Shown piece after piece: positions 22,811 through 48,095 of a DNA stretch of 48,095 nt (position 1 is the first letter of the stretch; each line of letters starts with the position of its first letter). Source of the DNA: Candidatus Saccharimonadota bacterium (lineage in GTDB: Bacteria; Patescibacteriota; Saccharimonadia; Saccharimonadales; UBA4665). A program made the translations under genes and the position numbers. The notes under the pieces were generated by a model. It ran no database searches and was not told the origin of the DNA. It saw nothing but the letters and a program-made list of their open reading frames with translations. Where the stretch lies: assembly GCA_036782475.1 (NCBI GenBank), contig DAIPYY010000001.1, positions 1 to 48,095 of the forward strand, read 5' to 3'.

Positions 22811-23233
22811 TTATGCCGCGATAGTGCTTGTTTTGTTGAGCACGAAGTGAACGATGACCTGTGCCAGCGCCACGATAACGAGGCCGATAAGCGCGTAGAT
22901 GATGGTGTTTTTCGCGTTCGTGATCTTGCCGCTCTCGCCACCGGAGGTGATGTATTTGGCACCGCCCCAGATAATCATGATGACGGCGATCACACCGACT
23001 ACTACGGAGATGATGTTCACGATAAGGGTAATGATGTCGGTCAGGTTGTCACCTGTCGAAGTGTCACCCGGGGTACAATCACCGCTTAAGTCGCCATCGA
23101 GGTTAGTTCCTTGCGATAGACAGTCGGTAATGCTCGATTGAGCGTATACCGGTGCCGAAAGGGCAAGGGGAACTCCAACGACCGCCAGAGCGACTAAAAG
23201 GCCGGCGGCAATTCTTTTTATCTTTGCTATCAT
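22811..23233 (-). CDS. T4SS pilin, VirB2/TrbC-like (paralogue 1, candidate major pilin)
   Basis: Signal peptide ending PVYA/QS, Cys pair (DC...DC), two hydrophobic helices flanking the loop AKYITSGGESGKITNAKN. Own promoter, SD and terminator. Confidence 0.8.
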   Translation of the reverse strand: MIAKIKRIAAGLLVALAVVGVPLALSAPVYAQSSITDCLSQGTNLDGDLSGDCTPGDTSTGDNLTDIITLIVNIISVVVGVIAVIMIIWGGAKYITSGGESGKITNAKNTIIYALIGLVIVALAQVIVHFVLNKTSTIAA

Positions 23234-23269
23234 ATCAGTTCATTTCCTTTCTTATTGCTTTACGTTTAG

Positions 23270-23297
23270 TGTATATCACGTTTGGGGCATTTTTCAA
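23270..23297 (-). promoter_or_regulatory. promoter TTGAAA-16 nt-TGaTATACA in front of pilin paralogue 1
   Basis: Minus strand reads TTGAAAaatgccccaaacgTGaTATACA, then a leader of about 30 nt with AAGGAAA. Confidence 0.55.
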
Positions 23298-23313
23298 CTA
23301 TAAACCCTCTCTT

Positions 23314-23745
23314 TTACCCGAGCGGCACGAGGCGGACTATAGAAGTTTTCTCTTTTGGAGTAGCAGCCTCCTTCGTCACTTTGAGCACATTACGCACGAG
23401 GAATTGTGCAAGGGCTACGATAACGAGACCGATGACGGCATAGATCAGGGCATTTTTTGCGGTCGTGACTTTGTTGGTATCACCGCCGGACGTGATGTAC
23501 TTCGCACCAGCGAAGATTATCATGATCACGGCCAGCAGACCGACAATGATACTGAGCACGTTGATGACCGACCGTATGACACTGGTAAGATCACCGCCGC
23601 CGTTGTCGTCGCAGTTCGTTCCGCTGCCGACAGCCTCGCAGACCGTTTCTTTGGTGGTCGCGGCACTTGCTGTCGCGGGCGTCGCGACGATTGCCGTCAG
23701 GGGGACAATGATGCTGAGCGTAAGTATGAGAAACCATTTTTTCAT
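23314..23745 (-). CDS. T4SS pilin, VirB2/TrbC-like (paralogue 2)
   Basis: Signal peptide ending ATASA/AT, Cys pair (VCEAVGSGTNC), helix-loop-helix with AKYITSGGDTNKVTTAKN. Starts 1 nt after the upstream stop, with SD AGGGGG inside the upstream gene. Confidence 0.8.
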   Translation of the reverse strand: MKKWFLILTLSIIVPLTAIVATPATASAATTKETVCEAVGSGTNCDDNGGGDLTSVIRSVINVLSIIVGLLAVIMIIFAGAKYITSGGDTNKVTTAKNALIYAVIGLVIVALAQFLVRNVLKVTKEAATPKEKTSIVRLVPLG

Positions 23746-23746
23746 A

Positions 23747-24154
23747 TTATAAAAACCCCCTTATGATCGCTACTATTATGACATCTGCAAGCGCGATAAT
23801 CACAAGGCCGACGAGCGCTCCAATGAGCGCATTACGCGCACCGACCGCCTTTTGGGTGTCACCGCCGGAAGTGATATACCGCATTCCCGAGACGATGATG
23901 ATAAAGACGGCGGCGATACCCGCTATAAGCGCGATAAGCTGAGTAACTCTGATAAGTATTCCGTCGCTTCCTGTAAGTGGGTTTGCTTCCGGGTCAGTAG
24001 TTTCACAGGTAGGTGAATCAGTGGCTTTACCAGTGCATGCTTCTTCGAGTATGTTAGTCTCAGCCGCAAATACCGGCTGTGTGAGGGTGAATGGCGCAGC
24101 AAGTCCACTGAGCATGAGCAGGGAAATCACCATTAGCATAATCTTCCGAATCAT
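23747..24154 (-). CDS. T4SS pilin, VirB2/TrbC-like (paralogue 3)
   Basis: Start at ATG 24154 (TGATG overlap with the upstream stop). Signal peptide ending PVFA/AE, Cys pair (ACTGKATDSPTC), loop MRYITSGGDTQKAVGARN. Confidence 0.8.
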   Translation of the reverse strand: MIRKIMLMVISLLMLSGLAAPFTLTQPVFAAETNILEEACTGKATDSPTCETTDPEANPLTGSDGILIRVTQLIALIAGIAAVFIIIVSGMRYITSGGDTQKAVGARNALIGALVGLVIIALADVIIVAIIRGFL

Positions 24155-24471
24155 CAGGATACTCCCTGGATAGCAAAGGTGACAATAGCGACTGCCGATA
24201 CCGAGACTATTAGCCCGATTGCGGCATACAAGATGCCCTGGCGGGCTTCCGCCATCTTTTGCGGCTCGCCGTTCGCGGTGATATACCGGAAACCGTTGAT
24301 GACGATCATCAGCAGGGCAATTGCAGCAGCAAGTCCGAACGCGATGGTCAAGCCATTGCGCCACAACATTTTCGCGCGGTCGCCCGGATCCATATTCGGC
24401 AAGGGAGAGAGGTCTATCTGCGGCGTGGTTGCCGCCACCTTGAGCAGGAAGGCGTGAAGTTGTGTCATCAT
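24154..24471 (-). CDS. VirB2/TrbC-like pilin paralogue 4 (short, no classical signal peptide, no Cys pair)
   Basis: 105 aa with two hydrophobic helices flanking FRYITANGEPQKMAEARQ. ATGA overlap with the upstream gene and TGATG overlap with the downstream gene. Confidence 0.7.
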   Translation of the reverse strand: MMTQLHAFLLKVAATTPQIDLSPLPNMDPGDRAKMLWRNGLTIAFGLAAAIALLMIVINGFRYITANGEPQKMAEARQGILYAAIGLIVSVSAVAIVTFAIQGVS

Positions 24472-25244
24472 GATGTCAAAGCCTTTCCGAGGAAGACAAC
24501 GACTCCCCTTGCTACAAGCGCAACTGCCAGCGCAATAAGCGCATTGATAATCGTACTCTGGGCGCGCTTCGTTATATCGGGCGTACCTTGGCTCGTGATG
24601 TACTGTATGCCTCCTGTCACGATGAATGCGATGGCGATATAGGCAGTGACAATGAGAAGGTCATCGACAATGGCAAGTGCGACCGCCGGGATTACGCCTA
24701 CGTTACCCCCCGAGGGTAGCAACGGTAGGTCCTGGCTGACATTACAAGTCTGAGGGTTGATTTGATTCTGCGGAATATATGCATACCATGTTTTGAGGCC
24801 AAGGAATTGGCGCTGACAGCTCACGCCGCTCGTCTGTACGACATTATATGGGGTCATAAACTGTACGAACGAGCCGAGCAACAGGAATGCCACAAGCCCC
24901 ACCAGCGCCTGCGTGATGGTACGTTTGCCCTTGGCGACCTTTTGCGGATCGCCGGCCGAAGAGCCATATTGTATGGCACCCCATATGATACCACCGACAA
25001 CAGCAACTCCTGCAACTATGGCAAGGAGTCGTATGAGCGGGTTGACATACTTTGCGACGGCGCATGACGTTGCATCACCTTGCGACCCCGTCGGGCAGCA
25101 GACTCTGCCCTGCTTATCACTCGTAAGCGGCGTTTGGCCGGCAGGACATGCCGCACTCGCGACCGGCGGGAACGCCATAGTGACCGTCAAGAACAAGCCG
25201 ACTGATACAAACAGAAGCGCGATACACGAAAGCAATCGTTTCAT
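24468..25244 (-). CDS. tandem double-module VirB2/TrbC-like pilin
   Basis: Signal peptide ending VASA/AC. Module 1 loop is IQYGSSAGDPQKVAKGKR and module 2 loop is IQYITSQGTPDITKRAQS. Each loop sits between two hydrophobic helices and each module follows a Cys-containing external segment. Confidence 0.75.
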   Translation of the reverse strand: MKRLLSCIALLFVSVGLFLTVTMAFPPVASAACPAGQTPLTSDKQGRVCCPTGSQGDATSCAVAKYVNPLIRLLAIVAGVAVVGGIIWGAIQYGSSAGDPQKVAKGKRTITQALVGLVAFLLLGSFVQFMTPYNVVQTSGVSCQRQFLGLKTWYAYIPQNQINPQTCNVSQDLPLLPSGGNVGVIPAVALAIVDDLLIVTAYIAIAFIVTGGIQYITSQGTPDITKRAQSTIINALIALAVALVARGVVVFLGKALTS

Positions 25245-25252
25245 TAAGCATA

Positions 25253-25258
25253 ACTATA
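25253..25258 (-). promoter_or_regulatory. -10 box TATAGT, 8 nt upstream of the tandem-pilin ATG
   Basis: Minus strand reads acagTATAGTtatgcttaATG. Confidence 0.35.
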
Positions 25259-25316
25259 CTGTTTTGTTATTGTTCAATCAAGTATCAAAGAGCTTGTTTC
25301 CTCTTGGTAAATCGAG

Positions 25317-26510
25317 TTATTCGATTCGCTCAAGACCGCCAAGCCATTTCGACCGCGACCAATCGCAAATGACAATATTAGGGTTGTAGCTCAACGTTGC
25401 TTGCTGCGAATCCTCGACCATGGGAGGAGTAATATTTTGCATCATATCCCAGTCCATGAATCCATCAAGCCCATCTTTTCGTTGACTCACATGGAAAAAT
25501 TGCACAAGTGAAAATTTGCCACTCTCAGGAGCAATCTGTCCTGATGGGTTATAGTATGCTTCGCTTACTCCTGCTTCCGGCGCATACACCGCCATGGTCA
25601 GCACGCTATTTCTTTTCTCATCGGAGTTTTTTTGCTGGTCGCGAGCAGCTGCAAATACATATAACGCACCGTCGGGATTGTTTATAGGATCGTATTCGGC
25701 ACATTTTGCATCACCGCCCCTTGAAGTTATCCATTCATAGTCGTACGCGAGCGGCTTTTGTCCGCCCCAGTCCGGATGGTATGAATTAATAATAATCGTA
25801 GGATCGGCCACGTTGTCCCGCATCCACTCTTCACGAGTGCCGATACCCCAGAAGGGATCTTGCGCGTATTCGTAAACCCCTTTTGGCCGCACGTCGAGCA
25901 TAGAAATGACTTTGCGTGCATTCGTACGATCACCGTTTTGGTAGAGTAGCTTCGCCGTTTTTTGTAACATAGACAAACGGATCATTAACATCTGGGGGTC
26001 ATCGACGGATGTTGCCATCCAAGGGGCATAGCCTGCTTCGAGCGTTTCTACGATTTGCTCCCTCAGTTTTGCGTTTGAAACTTTGGAACCTTCGACCAGA
26101 TCATGCGTGATGCCCTGTAAGAACTGTGATTTAGTCTCTGGATCCTGTCCTATGAATTTCTTTTCGCTCATCTTTTTGGCCTTTGCGTACTTCGGGGGCA
26201 CCTCATAGCTCGACTGCGGGGCCTGCTCTGAAGGGGTGGCACTGGACGAGGGACTGGATTCGGTCGCGGTGGGTGTAGGTGTCTCCGAGGCGGGCGGAGT
26301 GGTAGGATCAAGCGTAGAAGAAACGGGAGTCGGAGTTGTGTCGGCGGGATTGATTTCACCGGGAGCGGTAGCGCAGCCGGACAGGGCAAAGGCCCCGACC
26401 GCAGTTATCGCGACGGCTTTTCGGGACATACGTTCATATATACCGACCACTGTCTGTCTTACATAATCAAAAGCTCGCGCGCTTTCTTGATGCAGTGCTG
26501 TCTCGCCCAT
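25317..26510 (-). CDS. putative lipoprotein (Pro/Thr/Ser-rich linker plus about 300-aa globular domain), heads the pilin region
   Basis: Lipobox AFALSGC after a hydrophobic segment. ATG 26510 has a strong SD (GAGGAGGaaacgATG). An internal ATG at 26429 would give a canonical MSRKAVAITAVGAFALSGC signal. Confidence 0.7.
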   Translation of the reverse strand: MGETALHQESARAFDYVRQTVVGIYERMSRKAVAITAVGAFALSGCATAPGEINPADTTPTPVSSTLDPTTPPASETPTPTATESSPSSSATPSEQAPQSSYEVPPKYAKAKKMSEKKFIGQDPETKSQFLQGITHDLVEGSKVSNAKLREQIVETLEAGYAPWMATSVDDPQMLMIRLSMLQKTAKLLYQNGDRTNARKVISMLDVRPKGVYEYAQDPFWGIGTREEWMRDNVADPTIIINSYHPDWGGQKPLAYDYEWITSRGGDAKCAEYDPINNPDGALYVFAAARDQQKNSDEKRNSVLTMAVYAPEAGVSEAYYNPSGQIAPESGKFSLVQFFHVSQRKDGLDGFMDWDMMQNITPPMVEDSQQATLSYNPNIVICDWSRSKWLGGLERIE

Positions 26511-26536
26511 CGTTTCCTCCTCTCAGTTGATGACTA

Positions 26537-26542
26537 ACTATA
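26537..26542 (-). promoter_or_regulatory. -10 box TATAGT upstream of the lipoprotein gene
   Basis: Minus strand reads ttcTATAGTtagtcatcaactGAGAGGAGGaaacgATG. Confidence 0.3.
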
Positions 26543-26575
26543 GAATGAAACTATCCTTGTCTCTTTGCAATATTT

Positions 26576-26591
26576 TGTGACAAAAATCACA
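26576..26591. promoter_or_regulatory. perfect palindrome TGTGA-N6-TCACA (CRP/FNR-type half-sites) in the divergent intergenic region
   Basis: TGTGAcaaaaaTCACA lies between the lipoprotein/pilin unit (minus) and the VirB6-like gene (plus). Confidence 0.4.
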
Positions 26592-26718
26592 CTCAGAGCC
26601 ATGCACGCGACACAAGGCGGATATCAATTTTTGCGCAATTATGACGGTTTCCTGTAGCTTTTACGGTAGTTTTCGTGTTAAATATAACTATAAGCATAGG
26701 CGATACGTCTGAACCATC

Positions 26719-29700
26719 ATGAAACATAAACTGAAACTTTCTTTTTGGGCACTGGGAATCCTCGTCCTCATCATGTCCCAGCTTTTCCTCCTCGCCCCCG
26801 CGCAGAAAGCTTCCGCGCAAAGCCTGACTATTGATAGCCTACGGGATAAGACTCATGCTTTCGCGGTATACACCGTATGGCATAGATGTCTCTCCGAATA
26901 CGATGGGACTAGAGTAACAAATTTGAGGATGAACCTTAATTTCGGTACGAACCAGAAAACGTACATCCTCGGTTTTGCACGATCTGACGGTGACAATAAC
27001 GACGGGACAATAGCATGTTCTGACGCGGCGCGGCTCTGGGCTGCTCTTGCGGGCTACTCGGATGCAGACACCATGATGAAGGATCTCGGTTTTACGGTAA
27101 CGGTGCCTGGCTGTACCAGCGCACCCTGCACGACCGCCGGAGTTACATACTATGAGCTTGGTAAAACAACATCGAAATCATCTCTTCCCGGTAAGGTCGA
27201 GTCCATTTCTAGAGAGAAGGGAATTGCTACGTCTCTCCCCACGTGGGGTAGGTATATTCTTTCGGCCACAGCGGCAGAGGCAAAATGCCAGCCATCAAGC
27301 ACGACGGGGCCGGCAGCCCGCGCCAATCCAACGGTTAGTATTAACGTAGTTGGAGATGATATGGGCACCCTGGTCAGCAAGACATATGATGTCAGCACCT
27401 CCGAAATCGTGCCTGCATACCCGAACATGAGCGGAGGGAATAATGCGAGCTGTAAGTATCTAACCGATGATATTAAGGCCAGTGCCACAAAGTTTAGCAG
27501 TGCCCTTGTCGAAGACCGCATCACCACCGCTATTTCGCTTGCCGAAACTGCCATTTGCGAGCAGTTGCAAATAACAAACGACCGGGAAAAACAGAATTGT
27601 CTCAGTAACTTTGGTTCTTACCTTAAAACCTGTATCGACGACTACTACACCGGTAATCTGACGTCGGGTACTCGCAGCAGGGCAGATCCATTTGACACGG
27701 ATTACGTAGCAACTTGCGTCGAAACCAAAGCAAAAAAAGCAGGCTACAATATCTCTGCAGAAGATATCTCATCCATTCTAGGCGACGCTCAAAATCAAGC
27801 TACACCGAGCACAACCCCTTCGAGCGATTCGGCTACCGATATATGTGACATCCTTGGTGAAGAAGTGCCCATGAAGTGGATGGCATGCGCGGTACTCACT
27901 GCCATGAACGGTATCGTCAACGCCCTCTACGACATGATTCAAAACCTGCTCTACACCCCCATCGACCAAACATTGGCATCGAATCAGTACAATACAAGCA
28001 TCTCGAATTTCCGCATCTTCGGCATGGCTTTTATCTTCATCATCGGACTTATCATGGTGATAGCACAGGCAACAGGATCCGAGATAGTCGACGCATACAC
28101 CGTGCGAAAGGTCCTGCCAAAACTTGGCATTGCTATCATCGGCATTGCTATCGCCGTACCTATCCTCAAGATTCTTATCACCTTCACCAATGACCTCGGT
28201 ATAATGGCGGGCAATTTTATTACCGACATAGCGCCGACAGAGGTCATTAAATCAAATGCAGTAAAAAGTGATGCCGTGGGAGCTCTCGTCGGAACGGGTA
28301 CGCTTGGTATTATTGGCATACTAACCGCCGCAGTCGCACTGGTTGCCCAAGGGCCGGCGGCACTCACTTACATAGTCGTGGCCGTGGTGGCGCTACTCAT
28401 CGCCTTCGTCACGCTAGCCATGCGGCAGCTCGTCATCATCGTGCTTATCCTTTTCGCGCCTATTGCTATAGCCGCTTCCGCACTGCCCGGCACAGAAAAA
28501 CTTTGGAAGTTTTGGCGCGGCACGCTCATCACCACGCTCATGATGTTCCCCATCATCATGATCTTTCTCAAATCCGGTGTTTTCATGGCGTCAATCTTTG
28601 GCAATATCGGCGACCAGCTGAACAACCAAATGTACTACCTCATCGCAGCAGTCATATTTATCGCACCGTATTTTATGCTACCGCTCGCATTCAAGATGGC
28701 CGGTGGCCTCGTCGGCAATATATTTGGCATGGTCAATGACCGCAGCAAAGGCCTCTTCGACCGCATGCGCAATATGCGAGGCAATGCGATGAAGAAAAAC
28801 TGGCAAGGTTTAATGGAGGGGAATAGATACAAAGGGAATACAAGACTTGGCAACTTCATAAACAAGGCCGGAACTACTGCAAACGCATTTAGAACTGGCC
28901 AGGTAGGATACGATATGTCCCAATGGGGATCGCAAGTTAGGAGCGCTCAATCGAGGCAAGACCTTACGGCCGCAGAAGAAGCCCTGCAGAAGAATCCTCA
29001 TATGATGCGTCTCAAGTCCAATGACGACTACATGAGTGCTGCGATTCGCTTCCAAAATGCCGAGCAGCAGAAGGCTTTCCTCATGAACAAAGGCTACAGC
29101 GACACAGAATCAAGCGAAGCGGTTGCAACGATACGTTCTGCACGACGAAGCATGTCAAATGAAGCATTTGAAAATGCTGCCATGTTAGCGCTCCCCGGAA
29201 CCGGCACGTATGCGAAAACTGTGTGGAATGCTCAAACCCAGCAGTTTGAGGGCGGTAAGGCAGAGATGCTTCAGGATATTTTACGTCTTAGCAATGGAGA
29301 TCAAAACCGTGCCGACACCCTGCTTGCTATGATGCGTCAAGGCGCCCAAGGCGCAAGGCGGTTCGATCTTGCTGGCGGTAGCTATGGTGACGATAGAAGC
29401 AGAATGTATGCATTCGCAAGTGGCACAAGGAGCTCGGATGAGGTCAATAAGGAGTCTATCCAGGACTTCATCAAATCAAATGGTGCGGGTGCTATAGCTC
29501 AGGTCCGCGGTAATACGGTCAAACCTTTCGCGGAAGTTATTGCCCAGGATCTCCAAGCGGCTCAGCAGCAATACGGGTTTAATTCTCCTGAATTCCAGAA
29601 GAAGCTCGCCTCCGTTGCTGGCCTATACGATACCATGGGGTCTGCCTCTCCTGAGAATGCTGAAGAATACGCAGACGTGGTTATGTCCTTGCAGTTTGCT

Positions 29701-29898
29701 GGCGGTACACAGGATGTCCAGCAGCTAATCGAAGCCAACAGGGCAAACCCAGACTTTGTTAAAATGCGGCGTGAATATCAGAGTCAATATGCATATCAAG
29801 CAGCCCAAGCGGCTCAGCAACAACCGCCTCCCGCTGGTGGGCCAGGAGGACCTGGTGGACCTCAACCTGGTCAGCCAGGAGGACCTGCTGGACCCTGA
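26719..29898 (+). CDS. VirB6/TrbL-like polytopic T4SS membrane protein with a large Cys-rich ectodomain and a long cytoplasmic tail
   Basis: Signal peptide (..AQKASA/QS), a Cys-rich external domain of about 400 aa, about 7 TM helices (aa about 425-665), then a tail of about 390 aa ending QQQPPPAGGPGGPGGPQPGQPGGPAGP. Confidence 0.65.
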   Translation: MKHKLKLSFWALGILVLIMSQLFLLAPAQKASAQSLTIDSLRDKTHAFAVYTVWHRCLSEYDGTRVTNLRMNLNFGTNQKTYILGFARSDGDNNDGTIACSDAARLWAALAGYSDADTMMKDLGFTVTVPGCTSAPCTTAGVTYYELGKTTSKSSLPGKVESISREKGIATSLPTWGRYILSATAAEAKCQPSSTTGPAARANPTVSINVVGDDMGTLVSKTYDVSTSEIVPAYPNMSGGNNASCKYLTDDIKASATKFSSALVEDRITTAISLAETAICEQLQITNDREKQNCLSNFGSYLKTCIDDYYTGNLTSGTRSRADPFDTDYVATCVETKAKKAGYNISAEDISSILGDAQNQATPSTTPSSDSATDICDILGEEVPMKWMACAVLTAMNGIVNALYDMIQNLLYTPIDQTLASNQYNTSISNFRIFGMAFIFIIGLIMVIAQATGSEIVDAYTVRKVLPKLGIAIIGIAIAVPILKILITFTNDLGIMAGNFITDIAPTEVIKSNAVKSDAVGALVGTGTLGIIGILTAAVALVAQGPAALTYIVVAVVALLIAFVTLAMRQLVIIVLILFAPIAIAASALPGTEKLWKFWRGTLITTLMMFPIIMIFLKSGVFMASIFGNIGDQLNNQMYYLIAAVIFIAPYFMLPLAFKMAGGLVGNIFGMVNDRSKGLFDRMRNMRGNAMKKNWQGLMEGNRYKGNTRLGNFINKAGTTANAFRTGQVGYDMSQWGSQVRSAQSRQDLTAAEEALQKNPHMMRLKSNDDYMSAAIRFQNAEQQKAFLMNKGYSDTESSEAVATIRSARRSMSNEAFENAAMLALPGTGTYAKTVWNAQTQQFEGGKAEMLQDILRLSNGDQNRADTLLAMMRQGAQGARRFDLAGGSYGDDRSRMYAFASGTRSSDEVNKESIQDFIKSNGAGAIAQVRGNTVKPFAEVIAQDLQAAQQQYGFNSPEFQKKLASVAGLYDTMGSASPENAEEYADVVMSLQFAGGTQDVQQLIEANRANPDFVKMRREYQSQYAYQAAQAAQQQPPPAGGPGGPGGPQPGQPGGPAGP

Positions 29899-29910
29899 TC
29901 ATAGATGCCA

Positions 29911-31668: not shown

Positions 31669-31675
31669 GATCTTT

Positions 31676-31683
31676 ATTATACA
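31676..31683 (-). promoter_or_regulatory. -10 TATAAT abutted by TG, 7 nt upstream of the PP2C ATG
   Basis: Minus strand reads agTGTATAATaaagatcATG. Confidence 0.45.
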
Positions 31684-31738
31684 CTACGCTTGTGTTTTTT
31701 GCAATAGTTTTATGTAGTCGTAGTGGTTTTCGCAGCGA

Positions 31739-38450: not shown

Positions 38451-38459
38451 TGCTATACT
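38451..38459 (+). promoter_or_regulatory. extended -10 TGcTATACT, 6 nt upstream of the dut ATG
   Basis: cTGcTATACTagatgtATG. Confidence 0.5.
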
Positions 38460-38465
38460 AGATGT

Positions 38466-38900: not shown

Positions 38901-38902
38901 CT

Positions 38903-39337: not shown

Positions 39338-39766
39338 ATGGCGGAGCAACTATTTCACATCGGCATAAAAGCACTCGTCGTTAACGGCGGCGGGGAAATA
39401 TTGATGCTCAAGGAAGTGTTCCCGGACGGCGGCATGCAGTGGGATGTCCCCGGCGGCCGGATGGATCCGGGCGAGACGTTCCTAGAGACACTCTCGAGGG
39501 AGCTGCGCGAAGAGATCGGAGTCGAAGAATATTTGACGGCGGAACATTTTGCGACAGCGCTCTCCAACAAGCAGATCCGGACAGAACAAGGCCCGGTCGC
39601 GCTGGTGCTCATCGTTTTCAGGGTCACCCTGGCGGATGCGGTCATGCCGCAAGCCCTCGAAAAGGGCGTGGAGTTGAGCTGGCAGCCAATTGACCAGGCG
39701 GCGGAGCTGTTACTCGACAAATATCCGCGCGAATTCGTCGAAAAGATCACGGAGATGGCCGCCTGA
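39338..39766 (+). CDS. NUDIX hydrolase
   Basis: Nudix box VPGGRMDPGETFLETLSRELREEIGV. Starts immediately after the previous stop. Confidence 0.85.
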   Translation: MAEQLFHIGIKALVVNGGGEILMLKEVFPDGGMQWDVPGGRMDPGETFLETLSRELREEIGVEEYLTAEHFATALSNKQIRTEQGPVALVLIVFRVTLADAVMPQALEKGVELSWQPIDQAAELLLDKYPREFVEKITEMAA

Positions 39767-40650: not shown

Positions 40651-40712
40651 AGCACTTGCCGCGAAAACTGGGTAGCCCGGTGGCAAAAACCAGCCAATAA
40701 GCGTAAGGAGAA

Positions 40713-40721
40713 TGCTATACT
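40713..40721 (+). promoter_or_regulatory. extended -10 TGcTATACT, 9 nt upstream of the PrgI-like gene ATG
   Basis: aaTGcTATACTactaggagaATG. Confidence 0.5.
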
Positions 40722-40730
40722 ACTAGGAGA

Positions 40731-41840
40731 ATGGCTACCTATAAAGTACTACAGGATATTGAGGCAGAGGACAAGCTCGTCGGTCCGTTTACTTTGTGGC
40801 AGTTCATCTATCTGTTCGTGGCGGGCGCTTGCGGCTACCTGAGCTTCATCTCAATCGCAAAGAATGTGCCGATTTTCCTTATCCTTCTCCTGCCGGTTAC
40901 CTTGTTTGCGGGCTTCTTAGCCATCCCCTGGGGGAGTGACCAGCCGACAGAGATATGGGCACTTGCGAAACTGCGGTTTTTCCTGAAGCCGCGGCGACGT
41001 ATCTGGAACCAGGACGGCATGACTGAACTCGTCAGTATTACGGTGCCGAAGACGATCGAACGGCAGCTGACGAACGGGCTCAATCAGCATGAAGTCCATA
41101 GCAGGCTGAACGCCCTCGCAAGTACGCTCGACAGCCGTGGATGGGCGGTCAAGAATATTAATGTCAATTTATCCGCTTTGCCCACAGCCACGATGCAGCC
41201 GTCCGACCGCCTCGTCGATGTCGGGTCAATACCCCAAGAAGTGATAGCGGTGGATGTACGCCCGGGAGACGATATCTTGGATGAGACTGCCAATACGGTC
41301 GCTCATAATTTCGACGCGATGATCGACGAAAGAACCTCCCAGAAGCGGCAAAAACTGGTTGATTTCATGAACAACCCCTTGCCGGAATCGCCGTCAGCCG
41401 TCCCCGCGGCTGCACCGCTGCCGGCAGTATCTGCCGCACAGCCTGTTTCGGCGCCCGCTCAAGCGGCCCAGTGGTTTGCTCCGCCTCCTACTGCCGCTGC
41501 TCCATTTGCTGCCCCCATCATGTCGCCTGCCGCACCGCAGCCCGTCATGAGCATGGCAGTTCCGCAGGCGGTGGAGCCGACCGCCGCCGAAGAGGCGCTT
41601 GTCGCTCAGCTGAAAGCAAAAAACGAGCAACAGGAAAGCGCCTACACGCACCTGCAAAGTATCAAGACACCGGAAGAGCTGGAGGCGGAAGCGGCAGCCC
41701 AGCAAGTTGCTCCCCCAGAGACGCCGCCGCGTATGACATCAGAGAAGCAGGCTGCTATAATGAACCTATCACGAGACGACAATAAAAGTATTGCAACGCT
41801 CGAGAAAGAAGCGAATGAAGTGGTAATTTCGCTTCATTAG
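40731..41840 (+). CDS. PrgI/VirB3-like T4SS membrane protein with a long Ala/Pro-rich C-terminal extension
   Basis: N-terminus YKVLQDIEAEDKLVGPFTLWQFIYLFVAG plus two TM helices is the PrgI-family pattern found directly upstream of VirB4 in Gram-positive-type T4SS. About 250 extra residues follow. Confidence 0.7.
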   Translation: MATYKVLQDIEAEDKLVGPFTLWQFIYLFVAGACGYLSFISIAKNVPIFLILLLPVTLFAGFLAIPWGSDQPTEIWALAKLRFFLKPRRRIWNQDGMTELVSITVPKTIERQLTNGLNQHEVHSRLNALASTLDSRGWAVKNINVNLSALPTATMQPSDRLVDVGSIPQEVIAVDVRPGDDILDETANTVAHNFDAMIDERTSQKRQKLVDFMNNPLPESPSAVPAAAPLPAVSAAQPVSAPAQAAQWFAPPPTAAAPFAAPIMSPAAPQPVMSMAVPQAVEPTAAEEALVAQLKAKNEQQESAYTHLQSIKTPEELEAEAAAQQVAPPETPPRMTSEKQAAIMNLSRDDNKSIATLEKEANEVVISLH

Positions 41841-41866
41841 AGAGCGAACGAACAGGGTGGCATAAT

Positions 41867-42802
41867 ATGAATCCAAACCAACAATATCAACAACCAACTC
41901 AGCCACAACCCCAGTATGTACCACCAGCTGGCATGCCGGCAGCACAGCCGCAGTACGCCGCTACAGCACAGCCTATGCCAATCAATACCATACCGCCCGC
42001 TCCCTTGCAGGCCGTCAGTGCCGCGCCGGGTCAGCAGGCTCCGCCCGCCGGAGCTGGGGCAATAGCACCCAAGACAAATCCCAACAGCACGCAGAACACG
42101 CTTCTCATATCTGAAATTCGCGACGGTGTCGTCATCATGAGCGACGGCAGCTTCCGGGCGGTCGTCATGGTCAAAAGCATCAACTTTGACCTGATGAGCC
42201 CGCAGGAGCAAGAAAGCATCGAATACGGGTACCAGGGGTTCCTGAACTCGTTGTATTTCCCGATTCAGATTTTCCTGCGGTCGGAAAAAGTCGATTTACA
42301 GCCCTACATCGAGCGCCTCGACAAAATCCGCACCGAACACGACAACATGCTGCTCGCCATGCTGATGGAAGATTACATCAACTACATCGACCAGCTGGCA
42401 CTCCAGACCAACATCATGGACAAGAAGTTTTACATCGTGATACCGTATTTCCCGACCGCCAACCCAGAGATGGCGACGACCCAGAACAAGAATTTCTTTA
42501 AAGGGCTCGTCGAGATGTTCAGTAAGCAGGAAAACCATATTGTCATCAATGAGGCGGACCTGGAAAAAGCCAAGGCCGAGCTGCGCAACCGTGTCCAAGC
42601 GGTGTTGGGAGGGCTGCAGCAATGTTCCATCCAGGGGCTGCCGCTTGACACCCAGGAGCTCATCGAGCTGTACTATGACACCTACAACCCGGATACCGCC
42701 ACCAGGCAACAGCTCAAGAATTTCAATGATTTGACCGCTGACATCGTCACGAAAGGCGAGGGCATGGCACAACAGGCACATCTGCAAAGGGAGTTACAGT
42801 AA
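41867..42802 (+). CDS. stand-alone VirB4 N-terminal-domain-like protein with a Gln/Pro-rich N-terminus
   Basis: No P-loop. The segment order parallels the N-domain of the next gene: FRAVVMVKSINFDLMS with ARTYYVYGYPRQVFTG, FPIQIFLRSEKVDLQPYIERL with IDISIYVYPVESQLVLDNL, and KKFYIVIPYF with FFRFGLYFTIYA. The TAATG overlap couples it to VirB4. Confidence 0.55.
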   Translation: MNPNQQYQQPTQPQPQYVPPAGMPAAQPQYAATAQPMPINTIPPAPLQAVSAAPGQQAPPAGAGAIAPKTNPNSTQNTLLISEIRDGVVIMSDGSFRAVVMVKSINFDLMSPQEQESIEYGYQGFLNSLYFPIQIFLRSEKVDLQPYIERLDKIRTEHDNMLLAMLMEDYINYIDQLALQTNIMDKKFYIVIPYFPTANPEMATTQNKNFFKGLVEMFSKQENHIVINEADLEKAKAELRNRVQAVLGGLQQCSIQGLPLDTQELIELYYDTYNPDTATRQQLKNFNDLTADIVTKGEGMAQQAHLQRELQ

Positions 42803-44715
42803 TGGCAAAACAAAAGATCGATCCCGTCCTCTTGGCGCAGCAACAGCGGGCCCGCGAGCAGGCTGAAGTAGCCGAAGCATTCCGCAAAGGCGTGACGGCG
42901 CTCCGCGATTTTATCGCCCCCAGCAGTATTGAGTTCTTCGGCAGCTATTTCCAGCTTGGCACGCGCCTGGCCCGAACCTACTATGTCTACGGCTACCCCC
43001 GACAGGTGTTTACCGGCTGGCTCAGCGGACTCGTCAACCTCGATGAAATCATAGATATATCGATTTACGTCTATCCTGTCGAGAGCCAGCTTGTGCTCGA
43101 TAACTTACGCAAGAAAGTCACCCAGCTCGAAGCGGGCCTCCAGATCGACGCAGAAAAGGGCCGGGTACGCGATCCGAGCAAGCAGGCTGCCATCCTCGAC
43201 GCCGAGGAAATGCGGGACAAACTCCAGGTGGGCGAGGAGCGGTTCTTCCGTTTCGGACTGTATTTCACCATCTACGCCAACTCACAGGATGAGCTTGAGT
43301 TCATCAGCCATAAAGTGGAAAGTATGCTCGGCCAGCAGCTTGTCTACAGCAAAGCCGCGACCAGCCAACAGGAACAGGGACTCAACAGCGTCGCACCGCA
43401 GATGGTCGACCAGCTTCAAATCCGGCGTAACATGTCGACAGGCGCCATCAGCACGAGCTTCCCGATCACTTCGGCCGATCTTACCCAGGATAATGGCATC
43501 CTTTACGGCATCAACATGCATAATAGCGGATTGGTCATTTTCGACCGGTTCACACTCGAGAACGGCAACTCGGTCGTCTTCGCGAAATCCGGCGCCGGCA
43601 AATCATTCACCGTAAAACTTGAAGCATTGCGCAGCCTGATGTTCGGCACGGAAATCATCATCATCGACCCAGAGAATGAGTATGAACGCATGTGCGACGC
43701 TGTCGGCGGAGCGTATGTCCGGCTCAGCCTCAATTCTTCGACACGCATCAACCCGTTTGACCTGCCGAAAGTCGTTGACGTCGAAGAGGCCGACAACGCC
43801 CTTCGCTCCAGCCTGATCACACTGCACGGACTGCTCCGCCTCATCATGGGCGGCGCACAGGCGCAGCTCGTCGGCGGCAACACCACGATTATGCCGGCGC
43901 TCAGCCCGTCGGAAGAAGCCGACCTCGACGCGGCACTCATCACGACATACGAGAAAGCGGGTATCACCCAAGATCCTCTGACTCATACCGGAATCCCACC
44001 TACTATAACCGACCTCTATGATACGCTGCTACACATGGGTGGTAATGGGCCGCAGCTGGCCCAGCGGCTACGCAAGTATACTAGCGGCACGTTCGCCGGC
44101 ATATTCAGCCAGCAGAGCAACATCGACATCAACAACCCGATGGTCGTCTTCAACGTCCGCGATCTCGAGGACGAACTGCGGCCGGTCGCGATGTACATCG
44201 TATTGAATTACATCTGGAACAAGACGAAGAGTGACCAAAAACGCCGCATCCTCATCGTTGACGAGGCATGGCAGCTCATGAAGTACGAAGACAGCGCTAA
44301 CTTCCTTTTCAGCCTCGCCAAGCGCGCACGTAAATACAATCTCGGTATTACGACTATCACGCAAGATGTCGAGGATTTCATGGGATCGCGCATGGGCCGT
44401 GCTATCGTCGCCAATGCCAGTATGCAGATACTCCTCAAACAGAGCCCGAGCGCCATCGACGTTCTTGCCGACGTGTTCAAACTGACAAGCGAGGAGAAAA
44501 AGCGTCTTGGACAATTCCCAGTAGGACAAGGCCTGTTTTTCGCCGGCCAAAACCATGTCCACATCCAGGTCGTCGCCAGCCCCACCGAAACGGGACTCAT
44601 CACCACCAATCCGACGCAAGTACAGGCTATCAAGCAAGGCGACCTAAACCAGCCCCAGGGAACCATCGACCTTCAAAACCAACTCTACCCCGGGAGTATG
44701 AATAACTTGTCGTAA
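42802..44715 (+). CDS. virB4: T4SS VirB4-family ATPase (Gram-positive PrgJ/TcpF type)
   Basis: Walker A AKSGAGKSF (about 43582-43608), IIIDPENEY, Walker B RILIVDEAWQL, ITTITQDVEDF. Confidence 0.88.
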   Translation: MAKQKIDPVLLAQQQRAREQAEVAEAFRKGVTALRDFIAPSSIEFFGSYFQLGTRLARTYYVYGYPRQVFTGWLSGLVNLDEIIDISIYVYPVESQLVLDNLRKKVTQLEAGLQIDAEKGRVRDPSKQAAILDAEEMRDKLQVGEERFFRFGLYFTIYANSQDELEFISHKVESMLGQQLVYSKAATSQQEQGLNSVAPQMVDQLQIRRNMSTGAISTSFPITSADLTQDNGILYGINMHNSGLVIFDRFTLENGNSVVFAKSGAGKSFTVKLEALRSLMFGTEIIIIDPENEYERMCDAVGGAYVRLSLNSSTRINPFDLPKVVDVEEADNALRSSLITLHGLLRLIMGGAQAQLVGGNTTIMPALSPSEEADLDAALITTYEKAGITQDPLTHTGIPPTITDLYDTLLHMGGNGPQLAQRLRKYTSGTFAGIFSQQSNIDINNPMVVFNVRDLEDELRPVAMYIVLNYIWNKTKSDQKRRILIVDEAWQLMKYEDSANFLFSLAKRARKYNLGITTITQDVEDFMGSRMGRAIVANASMQILLKQSPSAIDVLADVFKLTSEEKKRLGQFPVGQGLFFAGQNHVHIQVVASPTETGLITTNPTQVQAIKQGDLNQPQGTIDLQNQLYPGSMNNLS

Positions 44716-44724
44716 GGACCATTC

Positions 44725-47700
44725 ATGGCATCGTCACAAACACTCATTCCTACGGGAGAAAATCAATACGACGACGAAGATATGGAGCGCCTGAGGCGCC
44801 AGGAACGTGGTGTCACAGCCGCGGAAGACGGCGCTCCGACCGATGCTGTCGATATGAGCGGCATTGACCCGACCGCTGACCCCGACTATGTCGCACCTGC
44901 CGGAAAAGCTGGCGGCACTGCTGCCGGCGCCCCTAACTCCGCCTCAAACCTCGAACAAACAGCCCTTGGCAACCAGCCGGGCCTCGACGCGGAAGACGGT
45001 TTTTATACGGGAGGTGGAGGAAAGGGCAGAAAGCGCCGAAAATTCTGGACCAGACGACGGGCAATGGCGGGCGGCACTATCGCTGGATTTTTTGTAGGCG
45101 GGGGTATTCTCCTGTCGCCGTTCGTGATGGGTCCGCTTGAGTTCATCCATTTTGCACAGAGCCTTTCGGGCCCACACTTCGGTATATCCGAGCGTGCCAG
45201 CACACGAAATATAACCCGGTTCTATAAATTTATAACCGGGAGGGGCACAAGCACCTGTACCGCAAAAAACTGTCTCGTCCAAGATGGCGGCAAAGGAGAC
45301 ACACGCCTGAATTTCCTCGAGAGAAAATACAATAAAGTTATTTTCAAGAACATCGAGAGTAAGGGCTTCAAGATGTGGACCGATTCGAGGACGCAAACTT
45401 TTAAGGGATGGCGTATTGATACGTCCTCTAAAAATTCGCCGTTCAAGGGCATGAATGAGTCGATGATCGAAGATGCCCTGAAAGCATACGGCGTTAAAAA
45501 AGCAGATATTAAAAAAGTGGGCGGCACCGGGGGGTACTGGATAAAAAACGAGGCGCTGTTTAAGCGCGGCCAGACAAGGCTTGTAATGGCGATGTTGCAA
45601 GAGTCCGGCTATAGCAAAGTAGGATCGTGGATTAGGGCACGGCAACTCTGTAAATTCGCCGGCTGTGGTTTCCACCCCCTGAAAATATTGGACGAAAAAC
45701 TCAATGACAAACTCGACAAGGGACTCAAAAAACTGAAAGAAGAGTATGAAAAAAGCCGCAGGGCCAGTATCACCGGCACTGAAGCGTCAGGGGCGACTAT
45801 CGATACCACCAACACGGAGGAGCAAACAACCGGCGAGGACGGAGAACGCACCAACCAGTCTGTCGATGAATCCCTGAAGACCACGAAAACCACGACATCG
45901 CCGACGGCAATCAGTGATTTCATGAAATCTTTTGCCGCTCGTCCTTCCACGAAGATAAGTGCCAATGTTCTTGATGTTGTCGGTTATGCGTGTCTCGCCG
46001 CCAATATATATAAGGCTGCCGGCGATATCAACTTCGACCAAACTGTTATGCCGGCAATTAGGTTGGCAACGGAGCAAATCGCGACAGGCTCCCAAATAGA
46101 AGCAAGCAGCCTCATAGATGGTACCTTTAATTCAACAAGTCTTGAGCTTGCACATGAATACCTCGAGGCAAAGGATTCTTCTGGCAAAACAACAAGCTGG
46201 AGCGATGCTGCAAATATCCGCCAAAACAACGGTCTTAGCGGCGGGACGGATATTTCCTCGGATAAAAAAGAAATCTTATCGAACCCGGGCAAAGGCCCAT
46301 CCTGGCTTGAGTGGACCGAACCGATGGTAGACTTTTGCAGCAATCAAGCCATACAAGCTACTATGGGGGTACTTAGTATTGGGATAGGAGTGTTGAGTGG
46401 TGGTATGGTATCTACGATCGTGGGGGCTGTCGTTGGGTATTTTGCCGCCCCGGCAGCCCTAAATTTAATCGCGCAGAGTGTGGCAGGTAATGCTCTCGAT
46501 ATTGCCGGAGTAAAAGGAATCGAGATGGGTCAGTACGCTGATTTTGGGGCATTCTTTGGTGCTAATCTCGCAAGGCAGATGCGTGGAGGTAGGATCCTCA
46601 GCAGCGCAAGCGCGCTCAAACTTGCGCAAGATAATATGGATACCAAAAACGAAGAATTCGCATCGCAAAGTATCGCCTATAAACTCTTCAATGCATATGA
46701 CAGCAAATCGCTCATCTCGCGGGTCGTCGATACCCAGTCTACCTATGCGACCGAAAACATTGCGTCGACGATTAATAACTTCCTGGGTATCGGTACGAGC
46801 ACATTATCAACCATCGGCGGACTTTTCTCGAAAAAATCGAGCGCAGCAACTACTATGTACGATTATGGCATCCCGATGGTTGGATTCAGCCTCGAAGAGC
46901 AGGAAAACCCCCTTACGGAAAACCCGTATGAGAACGCAGCAATCGTAGGTGCCTTCCTCGACACTCCTGCCAGTAGCAGCCTCAAGGATCGTGCGCTGCG
47001 TTGTAACGGTGTAGAGTTCTACAAAGACGATCAATTTGGCTGGAGCATACGTAGCATCGCCGATCCGAACGCGGGCGCCGAGAATAATGTATTTCAAAAA
47101 TATGTCACCGGACATCTTGATAGTGACTGCGGTACCGATCCGGTCATCGCCGCCGCTGATTCGGATGCTACCGTTGCGACGGGAACGGGGTACGTAGCAG
47201 CAGCGGAAGATGACATGTGGACGCGCATGCGGAAGTTCATCGACGACCTCAGTGAGTTTGAGTCATACACGTGTCTTATGGCCGATGATGAAACCTCATG
47301 CGATAACAGCGGCTTCGGAGCTACTACTGCCGCCAGCAGTAGCACGGTCAATACCGACGACCTATACAAGGACTCAACCTCTATAAGTTGCGACACTCGC
47401 ACGAAAGATCTAGGAACACAAGAGGTCCAGCATGAAAGCAGTACATTTAAAATCAGGGTCTGCGGGATAAAAGAAATACCCAGTTCTGGACAGGAAAGCA
47501 CCAAAGGAAACCAGTACTACATCGAAGGCGCCGATGGCATGACAATCGTCAACTCAAGAGTATCGACGATCTTTATGAACCTGGCAGAGGATGCGACTGC
47601 GAATAATACTAAACTTTCAAGTAGCTCAAGTTTCCGCATGCACTCACATCAGCAAGATTTATGGAACGCCAATCCCGACCCGGAAGCAGTGGGGCCCCCG

Positions 47701-47925
47701 GGAAAAAGCAATCACGAAGTAGGAATAGCGGTGGACTTCAATACGGGTGGGTCGAAAAAATCAGGCGCATCATGCGACGCGAGGGCGACAAGTAGCTCAG
47801 CCATGTGGAAGTACCTCAACGGCTCATCGGGAGAGCCGGGCGCACAGAAATTCGGAATATACCAGTACGCCGTCGAGCCGTGGCATTGGGATGCATCCCC
47901 GACACGCTGTAAGGAGCCTTTGTGA
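44725..47925 (+). CDS. large membrane-anchored protein with a C-terminal M15 (VanY-type, LAS fold) D-Ala-D-Ala peptidase domain; candidate T4SS cell-wall hydrolase
   Basis: TM helix near aa 115-140 and a central TM cluster near aa 545-590. C-terminus has SSFRMHSHQQDLW, SNHEVGIAVDF (47707-47739) and EPWHWD (47875-47892), the SxxR / SxHxxGxAxD / ExxH zinc-peptidase pattern. Confidence 0.75.
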   Translation: MASSQTLIPTGENQYDDEDMERLRRQERGVTAAEDGAPTDAVDMSGIDPTADPDYVAPAGKAGGTAAGAPNSASNLEQTALGNQPGLDAEDGFYTGGGGKGRKRRKFWTRRRAMAGGTIAGFFVGGGILLSPFVMGPLEFIHFAQSLSGPHFGISERASTRNITRFYKFITGRGTSTCTAKNCLVQDGGKGDTRLNFLERKYNKVIFKNIESKGFKMWTDSRTQTFKGWRIDTSSKNSPFKGMNESMIEDALKAYGVKKADIKKVGGTGGYWIKNEALFKRGQTRLVMAMLQESGYSKVGSWIRARQLCKFAGCGFHPLKILDEKLNDKLDKGLKKLKEEYEKSRRASITGTEASGATIDTTNTEEQTTGEDGERTNQSVDESLKTTKTTTSPTAISDFMKSFAARPSTKISANVLDVVGYACLAANIYKAAGDINFDQTVMPAIRLATEQIATGSQIEASSLIDGTFNSTSLELAHEYLEAKDSSGKTTSWSDAANIRQNNGLSGGTDISSDKKEILSNPGKGPSWLEWTEPMVDFCSNQAIQATMGVLSIGIGVLSGGMVSTIVGAVVGYFAAPAALNLIAQSVAGNALDIAGVKGIEMGQYADFGAFFGANLARQMRGGRILSSASALKLAQDNMDTKNEEFASQSIAYKLFNAYDSKSLISRVVDTQSTYATENIASTINNFLGIGTSTLSTIGGLFSKKSSAATTMYDYGIPMVGFSLEEQENPLTENPYENAAIVGAFLDTPASSSLKDRALRCNGVEFYKDDQFGWSIRSIADPNAGAENNVFQKYVTGHLDSDCGTDPVIAAADSDATVATGTGYVAAAEDDMWTRMRKFIDDLSEFESYTCLMADDETSCDNSGFGATTAASSSTVNTDDLYKDSTSISCDTRTKDLGTQEVQHESSTFKIRVCGIKEIPSSGQESTKGNQYYIEGADGMTIVNSRVSTIFMNLAEDATANNTKLSSSSSFRMHSHQQDLWNANPDPEAVGPPGKSNHEVGIAVDFNTGGSKKSGASCDARATSSSAMWKYLNGSSGEPGAQKFGIYQYAVEPWHWDASPTRCKEPL

Positions 47926-48095
47926 TGAGATTTAGTCGGACGACAAGGTGGTCACGCAGACACTCTGCTTTACTGGCGTATAGTATCCTTATTTCGTTTA
48001 TACTGGTAGTTTCTTCGAGTCCGGCAGTGCAAGCTGCCCTAAGTGACGAGCAAAAAGCTGTATTCAAAAGGGAAATCGGTGCATTTGATGTAGAC
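47925..48095 (+). CDS. secreted hypothetical protein, N-terminal part (3' end outside window)
   Basis: ATG 47925 overlaps the previous stop (TGATG). Translation MRFSRTTRWSRRHSALLAYSILISFILVVSSSPAVQA/ALSDEQ... is a typical signal peptide. Not in the ORF track because no stop is reached. Confidence 0.6.
   Translation, partial: MRFSRTTRWSRRHSALLAYSILISFILVVSSSPAVQAALSDEQKAVFKREIGAFDVD

Follow-up and report, generated by a model that had tools for sequence, protein, structure and literature searches.

The window analysed here, 48,095 nucleotides of contig DAIPYY010000001.1 (assembly GCA_036782475.1, Candidatus Saccharimonadota bacterium, order Saccharimonadales), carries two groups of genes that are very probably the halves of one ancestral chromosomal type IV secretion system (T4SS) cluster of the Saccharibacteria/Patescibacteria, derived from the MPF_FATA-type conjugation apparatus of Gram-positive bacteria and serving host contact rather than conjugation. 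Locus 1 (22811-29898) holds five pilin genes, a lipoprotein gene and the gene of a large multi-pass membrane protein (hereafter the giant). Locus 2 (40731-48095) holds the genes for PrgI/VirB3, a TrsD-like protein, VirB4 and an M15 wall hydrolase, together with the start of an M23 peptidase gene, and the 10.8-kb spacer between the loci (29899-40730) consists of housekeeping genes. A role in host contact is most likely because the cluster is vertically inherited, adjoins oriC and has neither a relaxase nor a coupling ATPase in its neighbourhood. A first-pass annotation of the window had proposed a domesticated, non-conjugative secretion or contact machine in an epibiotic bacterium with a reduced genome. 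The oriC-side flank, the synteny in 57 species and the lack of DNA-processing genes support this proposal, and its view of the organism suits a member of the Saccharimonadales. All the T4SS-like parts that it listed were recovered in place through Pfam and NCBIfam matches, open reading frames (ORFs) and topology. The features are the following, the last two being the left flank.

22811-23233, minus strand: VirB2-like pilin 1 (PF18895, E 7.1e-16; TrbC, E 2.1e-7), signal peptide and two hydrophobic helices
23314-23745, minus strand: VirB2-like pilin 2 (PF18895, E 3.5e-15; NF045849, E 2.2e-8)
23747-24160, minus strand: VirB2-like pilin 3 (PF18895, E 3.7e-9)
24154-24471, minus strand: VirB2-like pilin 4, 105 aa (PF18895, E 1.7e-13), two transmembrane (TM) helices only
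24468-25244, minus strand: pilin 5, tandem fusion of two pilin modules (PF18895, E 1.3e-9 in two stretches)
25317-26510, minus strand: orphan lipoprotein with lipobox LSGC, a Pro/Thr/Ser linker and a domain of ~270 aa
26719-29898, plus strand: large multi-pass membrane protein of 'extended VirB6' architecture, 1059 aa, divergent from the pilin array
29911-40650, both strands: interrupting housekeeping block with PP2C and P-type ATPase genes (both minus), a hypothetical protein of 211 aa, polA, an 86-aa ORF, dut, two NUDIX genes and a hypothetical protein of 294 aa
40731-41840, plus strand: PrgI/VirB3-like membrane protein (PF12666, E 1.2e-8, 35.8 bits against a cut-off of 27)
41867-42802, plus strand: TrsD-like protein, 311 aa (NF041427 TrsD, E 1.1e-6, below the curated cut-off)
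42802-44715, plus strand: VirB4 ATPase of MPF_FATA/CD1110 type, 637 aa (NF045971, 353.6 bits against a cut-off of 325)
44725-47925, plus strand: M15 wall hydrolase, 1066 aa, membrane-anchored, C-terminal VanY/M15 domain (PF02557, E 7.2e-10, residues 942-1055)
47925-48095, plus strand: start of the M23 peptidase gene, 57 codons with the signal peptide, the remainder of the 444-aa gene lying past the window end
21390-22151, minus strand: comF-like phosphoribosyltransferase gene (Pfam Pribosyltran), conserved left flank, outside the machine
22196-22681, plus strand: hsp20 (Pfam HSP20, E 3.5e-18), conserved left flank, convergent with the pilin array

The relationship between the two loci emerges from other genomes. 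A scan of species-representative genomes gave 80 loci, nearly all from Saccharibacteria, Saccharimonadales or Patescibacteria, with which the window proteins were compared by tblastn. In 57 other species, among the loci reaching far enough, the genes form one contiguous cluster between comF-hsp20 and recF-dnaN-dnaA, in the order comF (minus strand), hsp20 (plus), five to eight pilin genes (minus), the giant (plus), prgI, the TrsD-like gene, virB4, wall hydrolase genes, recF, dnaN and dnaA (all three minus). The recF, dnaN and dnaA genes lie at most 10 kb downstream in 64 of the 80 loci. On the left side, comF was found in 19 of the related loci and hsp20 in 32 (SEML1_0021 and SEML1_0020 in Candidatus Southlakia epibionticum, hereafter S. 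epibionticum), the latter with a median identity of 78% over these 32 loci and adjoining pilin 1 in every one of them. An exact-match look-up with the M15 protein led to contigs of the window's own organism. On L002, one of these, the full M23 gene (Peptidase_M23, 3968-5302) is followed by an unknown 474-aa protein, by recF, dnaN and dnaA on the opposite strand, 2.8 kb past the window end (L002 6743-10583), and then by rnpA. The cluster has a fixed chromosomal position beside dnaA/oriC and is vertically inherited.

Since 57 species have one contiguous cluster at the same place, the split of the window is a derived rearrangement, private to one small clade (VirB4 ~90% identical or more), and not a property of the system. 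The first-pass annotation had described a T4SS divided into two loci by about 11 kb of core genes (P-type ATPase, polA, dut, NUDIX), which is true of the window, where Pfam matches give 10.8 kb, and not of the system at large. The polA block is missing at this position in the 57 species and present in relatives whose VirB4 is ~90-92% identical. Among the species representatives, L004 alone (VirB4 91%) resembles the window in having the P-type ATPase/polA block immediately upstream of prgI; further close relatives (VirB4 ~90-92%) show the same interruption with slightly different content, one of them with a MazE/PIN pair and fragments of a phosphoenolpyruvate-utilising enzyme. On a 1.07-Mb contig of a relative both halves are visible, with the outer flanks as in the window and a gap of ~13.1 kb. 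Repeats at the ends of the 10.8-kb block, direct or inverted, were looked for, and only short chance matches came up.

The cut has a parallel in a different species (L039), where rnpA, yidC, jag, glycosyltransferase and ABC-transporter genes stand upstream of prgI and no pilin or giant membrane protein gene occurs within 10 kb (1-10000). This is a second, independent break at the same junction. The same locus, the 10.8 kb between the two groups in the window and their separate transcription units, with the pilin genes on the minus strand and prgI-virB4 on the plus strand behind an apparent -10 element of its own, could be taken to mean that these are two independent systems, namely a pilin/adhesin locus that has a membrane protein of its own and, apart from it, a VirB4 locus for secretion. 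The -10 element was read from the sequence of the 80-nt gap before prgI, which holds an extended -10-like motif (TGcTATACT) and an AGGAGA ribosome-binding site; promoter and terminator scans were not usefully above shuffled expectation. We regard such independence as very unlikely, since the halves are adjacent in the 57 species and in S. epibionticum, where both are essential, and since VirB2 pilins require VirB4 and VirB6 for their assembly in known T4SSs, a dependence established in MPF_T and MPF_F systems.

The junction between the giant and prgI is a variable spot in general, as seen from the unrelated soluble proteins that often fill this slot in other species. In loci L008-L080 these are unrelated soluble ORFs of 130-770 aa, among which no common family was found. 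Roughly half have a basic pI (8.8 or higher), and in 13 of 22 the last 30 residues carry a net charge of at least +3. They could be spurious, lineage-specific accessory parts, or candidate substrates. The idea that they are detached C-terminal tails of short VirB6-like proteins was rejected, because long giants have slot ORFs too.

Conservation differs strongly along the cluster. VirB4 is 82-91% identical to that of the window across the 80 species (median 85%), and the other medians over the same species descend from 78% for Hsp20, 69% for TrsD, 68% for DnaA (range 59-77%), 60% for DnaN and 56% for RecF to 42% for PrgI, 36-48% for the pilins, 30% for the VirB6-like giant and 25% for the M15 giant. 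Within the split clade the values are 90-92% for VirB4, 78-80% for DnaN, 46-59% for the pilins, 49% for the VirB6-like giant and 22-31% for the M15 giant. By these identities, the cytoplasmic motor belongs to the most constrained proteins of these genomes, and the exposed parts evolve very fast. A VirB4 more conserved than DnaA, beside quickly diverging M15, VirB6-like and pilin proteins, is the pattern expected of host-facing parts, and the gradient fits a machine facing the host surface and not a decaying remnant.

Genes for DNA processing are missing from the region. Relaxase, coupling-ATPase and integrase families had no match among the ORFs scanned in the window or the genes called in the 7.4 kb beyond it, that is within ~55 kb; the search covered relaxase families, and oriT as such was not searched for. 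Precomputed Pfam assignments for the genes called in five context loci of the split clade include no relaxase, coupling-protein or integrase family either, and those for the contexts on L001, L002 and L084-L087 include no relaxase or coupling ATPase. VirB4 was the sole T4SS-type ATPase match among the ORFs scanned in the window, and the outer-membrane core VirB7/VirB9/VirB10 and VirB11 had no Pfam or NCBIfam match in the scanned ORFs of the region. The first-pass annotation had likewise seen no relaxase, coupling ATPase or integrase in the 48 kb, and had named two findings that would turn the cluster into an ordinary integrative and conjugative element (ICE): such genes just downstream of position 48095, or an att-bounded, variable presence of the loci among relatives. 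Downstream stand the M23 gene, an unknown gene, recF, dnaN and dnaA, without relaxase, coupling protein or integrase, and the cluster keeps the same core position in 57 species, with no bounding repeats. The parts share homology with the conjugation genes of Gram-positive elements, but an ICE, or its decaying remnant, with relaxase, coupling protein and integrase lying outside the window is extremely unlikely, given these neighbours, the fixed position, the lack of repeats and of DNA-processing families in the five context loci, and a VirB4 with intact Walker motifs and a higher conservation than that of DnaA. As far as the window and its flanks go, the ICE reading is refuted.

The system is already published, and the host-contact reading is the current published view (PMC7427843, PMC10633639, PMC12102498, PMC12857230); the first-pass statement that the parts list is 'largely uncharacterised' is contradicted by these papers. 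This conserved T4SS region was described in TM7x and other Saccharibacteria (McLean 2020, PMC7427843). In S. epibionticum, nearly every gene of the cluster was essential in co-culture by transposon sequencing (Tn-seq; Wang 2023, PMC10633639), and the authors noted pilins without a recognisable relaxase or coupling protein (PMC10633639). SEML1_0004-0021 of this organism comprise recF, exported proteins, a lysozyme, an M15 protein of 1113 aa, VirB4, a 293-aa protein and PrgI, followed by the giants SEML1_0011 and 0013 with the NTF2-like 0012 between them, six pilins, Hsp20 and ComF (PMC10633639). The window is syntenic with SEML1_0003-0021, both flanks included. Between ComF-Hsp20 and recF-dnaN-dnaA, the T4SS of S. 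epibionticum ML1 (SEML1_0006-0019) agrees with the window in gene types and their order, sharing the pilin array, the VirB6-like giant, PrgI, the protein of ~300 aa, VirB4, the M15 giant and a second wall hydrolase. The differences are that the S. epibionticum cluster is contiguous, whereas in the window 10.8 kb of housekeeping genes separate the VirB6-like gene from prgI; that there are six pilins in S. epibionticum and five in the window; that S. epibionticum has two giants (0011 and 0013) separated by the NTF2-like gene, and the window one giant and an unrelated orphan lipoprotein; and that the second hydrolase is a lysozyme/CHAP protein in S. epibionticum and an M23 peptidase in the window.

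Concerning the wider phylum, a survey of 2,474 Patescibacterial virB4 genes placed them next to MPF_FATA (Quinonero-Coronel 2025, PMC12102498). The survey also catalogues TrsD, PrgI, VirB6 and arrays of 2-11 VirB2 pilins, and reports relaxases as near-absent and the systems as close to dnaA (PMC12102498). Compared with what is described there, the window has the same parts, without relaxase, on the chromosome near dnaA, and no essential difference was seen (PMC12102498). The interruption by the polA block is not mentioned in the sections of the survey consulted here, and the window genes still fall within its range of '20 CDS of virB4', CDS being coding sequences (PMC12102498). A review described an essential, possibly pilus-forming monoderm T4SS and speculated on a conduit between epibiont and host (FEMS Microbiol Rev 2025, PMC12857230).

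VirB4 of the window belongs with MPF_FATA, passing the CD1110 cut-off and having an intact P-loop (Walker A AKSGAGKS at 261, Walker B ILIVDE at 483). It spans positions 176-733 of the 752 of NF045971, the first ~175 profile positions being missing, and also matches Pfam P-loop_TraG (E 7.7e-29) and PDB 4AG5 (E 1.2e-48). It is 88-100% identical to more than 120 Saccharimonadales cluster representatives, of which the named ones are nearly all Candidatus Saccharimonadales, Saccharimonadia or Saccharibacteria. Directly upstream of virB4 stand the genes of the TrsD-like protein, whose stop overlaps the virB4 start by one base (TAATG), and of PrgI/VirB3, a protein with two TM helices at 22-65 and a long Ala/Pro-rich C-terminal extension; the assignments of PrgI and VirB4 in the first-pass annotation are backed by PF12666 and NF045971 scores above the cut-offs.

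The TrsD-like gene had been called a paralogue of the VirB4 N-terminal domain, and the comparison corrects this: it is the VirB4 N-terminal module itself, encoded as a separate gene, as argued by collinear, complementary profile coverage and by a natural fusion. The protein matches only positions 11-116 of CD1110 and 99-284 of VirB4_plasma, parts absent from the virB4 gene, while VirB4 covers positions 292-890 of VirB4_plasma, collinear and without overlap. The fusion (P0252, 898 aa) matches the TrsD-like protein over its first ~230 residues and a CD1110-type VirB4 over the remainder, and aligns to the VirB4_plasma profile as a single stretch. BLASTP of the 311-aa protein against VirB4 found no similarity, which fits a complementary module rather than a duplicate. 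An exhaustive HMMER search gave 2439 relatives of the 311-aa protein, the fusion among them. The counterparts in related genomes carry a precomputed PF26593 TraC-like match that was not reproduced with the Pfam copy used here; the TrsD-like protein itself matched nothing in PDB and nothing significant in a Pfam hmmscan to E 10. The remote homology between TrsD and VirB4 cited in PMC12102498 agrees with the split module.

All five pilin ORFs on the minus strand (22811-25244) score above the gathering threshold for Pfam T4SS_pilin (PF18895, E 7e-16 to 4e-9), as the first-pass annotation, which counted five pilin genes in locus 1, would have it. On the TrbC/VirB2 profile, pilin 1 is just above the gathering score and pilin 2 just below, and four of the five match the Mycoplasma-ICE pilin-like family NF045849 at E ~1e-8, just under its cut-off (for pilin 1, NF045849 Mbov_0395 pilin-like, E 1.3e-8). 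Four of the pilins have a signal-like segment and two hydrophobic helices; pilin 4 is without a signal-like N-terminal hydrophobic segment, and pilin 5 forms two hairpins of hydrophobic helices. The true start of pilin 3 is probably the ATG at 24160 rather than the GTG at 24364, because a signal-peptide-like N-terminus is seen only from the internal ATG. Positionally orthologous divergent arrays of PF18895 pilins were found in 32 species. The best-hit order from pil1 to pil5 is non-decreasing in 24 of the 32 with complete arrays (loci L007-L083), pilin 4 comes directly before pilin 5, beside the giant, in 30 of 32, and the final member of the array is pilin-5-like in 28 of 32. The array members are positional orthologues and not recent duplicates, and the conserved order across species suggests distinct roles, e.g., major and minor subunits, rather than antigenic variation only.

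The giant combines a signal peptide, an ectodomain of ~400 aa with conserved Cys, six to seven TM segments (431-658) and a variable tail of ~400 aa, and it occupies the slot of SEML1_0013, annotated as TrbL/VirB6-like. Its match to NF046089 (CD3337/EF1877 mobilome membrane protein) is weak (E 1.2e-6) and far below the cut-off, and its orthologues have weak precomputed PF19590 TrbL_3 matches, not reproduced with our Pfam copy. In the Foldseek list DotA ranks first and TrwI/VirB6 chains occupy ranks 2-6 at E 1-3, none of them significant. A profile of 16 VirB6-like sequences searched against PDB sequences gave only one spurious match, to the Gln/Pro-rich region of a huntingtin fusion. Of the first-pass label 'VirB6/TrbL-like giant', the giant multi-pass protein at this slot stands, and the VirB6 part rests on weak matches.

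Across a divergent intergenic region of 208 bp from the giant lies the lipoprotein gene, which the first-pass annotation had recognised and whose lipobox is LSGC. The protein matched nothing in Pfam, NCBIfam or PHROGs, and its AlphaFold2 (AF2) model (pLDDT 36) is unusable. Only three homologues (60-100% identical) were found among 5.8 billion proteins searched, and the gene occurs neither on the related 1.07-Mb contig nor in any of the 80 species loci. It is an accessory gene and not a conserved part of the machine.

At the other end of the cluster, the M15 wall hydrolase named in the first-pass annotation is borne out by a PF02557 match with an intact signature (SxHxxGxAxD at 995, ExxH at 1051); a TM segment lies at 117-135. 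It occupies the slot of SEML1_0007 and is 21-31% identical even in close relatives. What had been listed as a 'secreted protein' at the 3' end does begin with a signal peptide, and its identity is now refined to a truncated M23 peptidase gene. The second hydrolase is M23 here and a Phage_lysozyme2 protein in relatives (L085 14982-16358; L087 15246-16424), and the wall-hydrolase module is mosaic among close relatives, M15 being 22-31% identical where DnaN is 78-80%. The operon from prgI to M23 points toward recF-dnaN-dnaA on the opposite strand in all 64 loci reaching that far. If oriC adjoins dnaA, it would be transcribed head-on to replication; the GC skew of the window is not decisive.

Put together, these parts suggest the following working of the machine. 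PrgI/VirB3 would anchor the two-piece VirB4, made of the TrsD-like N-module and the VirB4 core, at the cytoplasmic membrane, and the VirB6-like multi-pass giant would be the membrane platform. The five VirB2-like pilins may be inserted via the Sec pathway and extracted by the ATPase to form a short pilus or tube, for which the M15 and M23 hydrolases would open the cell wall. The machine would serve contact between the bacterium and its host, through exchange of proteins or small molecules or through attachment, and not conjugation. In this clade, the housekeeping block (10.8 kb here, ~13 kb in the relative) has come to sit between the VirB6-like gene and prgI.

A different use of the same machine would be DNA uptake like that by Helicobacter ComB or Sulfolobales Ced, in which host DNA or nucleotides are imported and no relaxase is needed. 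Saccharibacteria are naturally competent, but deletion of comEC in S. epibionticum abolishes competence and leaves viability intact, whereas the T4SS is essential (PMC12857230), so the essential role is not ComEC-dependent uptake. The comF gene is a conserved neighbour of the cluster, yet it is non-essential in S. epibionticum; VirB4 weakly matches CedB and CedD, far below the cut-offs, and these matches reflect the shared P-loop only. In the split clade polA, dut and NUDIX stand directly upstream of prgI on the same strand, but the block is absent at this position in 57 species, which makes the linkage accidental at the level of the order. Uptake is therefore an improbable explanation. The narrower proposal of a pilus-bearing T4SS as an import conduit for host nucleotides or DNA, its energising operon prgI-trsD-virB4 perhaps being co-expressed beside oriC with the polA-dut-NUDIX genes for nucleotide sanitation or repair, is quite improbable; the linkage of these genes to prgI is limited to one small clade and looks accidental.

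Several points weigh against a host-contact T4SS of the composition proposed here. The giant is likely VirB6-like by architecture and slot, and its sequence and fold matches are weak: a Pfam hmmscan with E up to 10 found nothing significant for it or for three orthologues, its AF2 model is mediocre (pLDDT 56.7) and Foldseek gave no significant match. A VirB8-like part was not found. The search for coupling proteins extended over the 48-kb window and its flank, and a distal homologue elsewhere in the genome is possible; many Patescibacteria have VirD4 homologues at a distance from virB4, among them a non-essential one in S. epibionticum (PMC12102498). Essentiality comes from the literature on this relative, a member of another genus. 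A pilus, a substrate and a direction of transport are not established for any member of the system.

Known systems outside the Patescibacteria frame the ancestry of the cluster. The MPF_FATA systems (CTn2/CD1110, pGO1 Trs, pCF10 Prg, Mycoplasma ICE Mbov_0395/0397) share with the window the TrsD-like and PrgI-like partners of VirB4, a multi-pass membrane protein, a large wall hydrolase and the Mycoplasma-ICE-like pilins. They are mobile and have a relaxase and a coupling ATPase, whereas the locus of the window is chromosomal, fixed and part of the core, and neither of the two is seen there. The nearest plasmid VirB4s, from Bacillota and Actinomycetota, are at most 38% identical to that of the window. 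The best match is on an 898-kb replicon of Pontibacillus sp. ALD_SL1 (NZ_CP062975.1, 351.8-361.4 kb; L088 5477-15030), where the gene order recurs: two pilin-like genes, then those for a multi-pass protein of 779 aa, a two-TM protein of 116 aa, a TrsD-like protein of 274 aa, VirB4 and a wall peptidase of 1050 aa. VirB4 is 36.8% identical, the TrsD-like protein scores 115.9 bits to that of the window, and one of the pilin-like genes scores above the cut-off of the NCBIfam family 'Mbov_0395 pilin-like'. Within 10 kb of this cluster the annotation lists no relaxase, and the replicon is typed as non-mobilizable. It differs from the window in its Bacillota host, its two pilins, its M23-type hydrolase and its flagellar/chemotaxis flanks in place of oriC, and its multi-pass membrane protein has no detectable sequence similarity to the giant. 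The rvh T4SS of the Rickettsiales is likewise non-conjugative, chromosomal and carried by a host-dependent bacterium with a reduced genome, in scattered islands with duplicated components. As a diderm MPF_T system with VirB7/9/10 and VirD4, it resembles the window by analogy of lifestyle and layout and not by close homology. It is cited as an exception to T4SS gene clustering in PMC12102498.

Regarding the surroundings, the window has ~55% G+C, and its left 22 kb are ordinary core genes and four tRNAs, with an ABC-2 permease, a Mur ligase, TsaD, ValRS, ArgRS, a GtrA/PIG-L protein and the ComF-like phosphoribosyltransferase. Within the interrupting block, the P-type cation ATPase gene (31739-34564) has 62% G+C against ~50-51% for the PP2C, giant and M15 genes, which may mean a foreign origin or merely different constraints; its product is 75-79% identical within the split clade. 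The PP2C gene (29911-31668) encodes a PP2C domain at residues 38-231 and then ~350 residues without a family match. It is convergent with the giant, with 12 bp between the ends, and a related genome has an unrelated 383-aa gene there. The 294-aa cytoplasmic protein (39766-40650) has no family match, occurs only in the split clade (60-74% identical), and its gene is always last or next-to-last before prgI there. In jackhmmer searches of every ORF in the fetched loci, the lipoprotein, 294-aa, PP2C and 211-aa proteins had no relatives beyond the split clade. In PHROGs, the PP2C phosphatase alone matched, to two families whose function is unknown, and five further proteins gave nothing.

The window thus holds a real feature that was correctly read and belongs to an already known system, its split being a local rearrangement. 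This system matters as the first T4SS reported to be essential to its carrier, a monoderm one with pilin genes, a case already in print. What the window adds is the separability of the halves, the conservation gradient, the TrsD-like protein as a detached VirB4 module and the same gene order in Bacillota. The cluster tolerates a cut between the VirB6-like gene and prgI, at least twice, and its halves behave as separable units. The occurrence of the same order, pilins included, in Bacillota is relevant to the question of co-option or inheritance of the pilins; the Pontibacillus cluster and the matches of four window pilins to the Mycoplasma-ICE family bear on the published suggestion that Gram-positive T4SSs are without VirB2 and that the pilins of Patescibacteria were co-opted.

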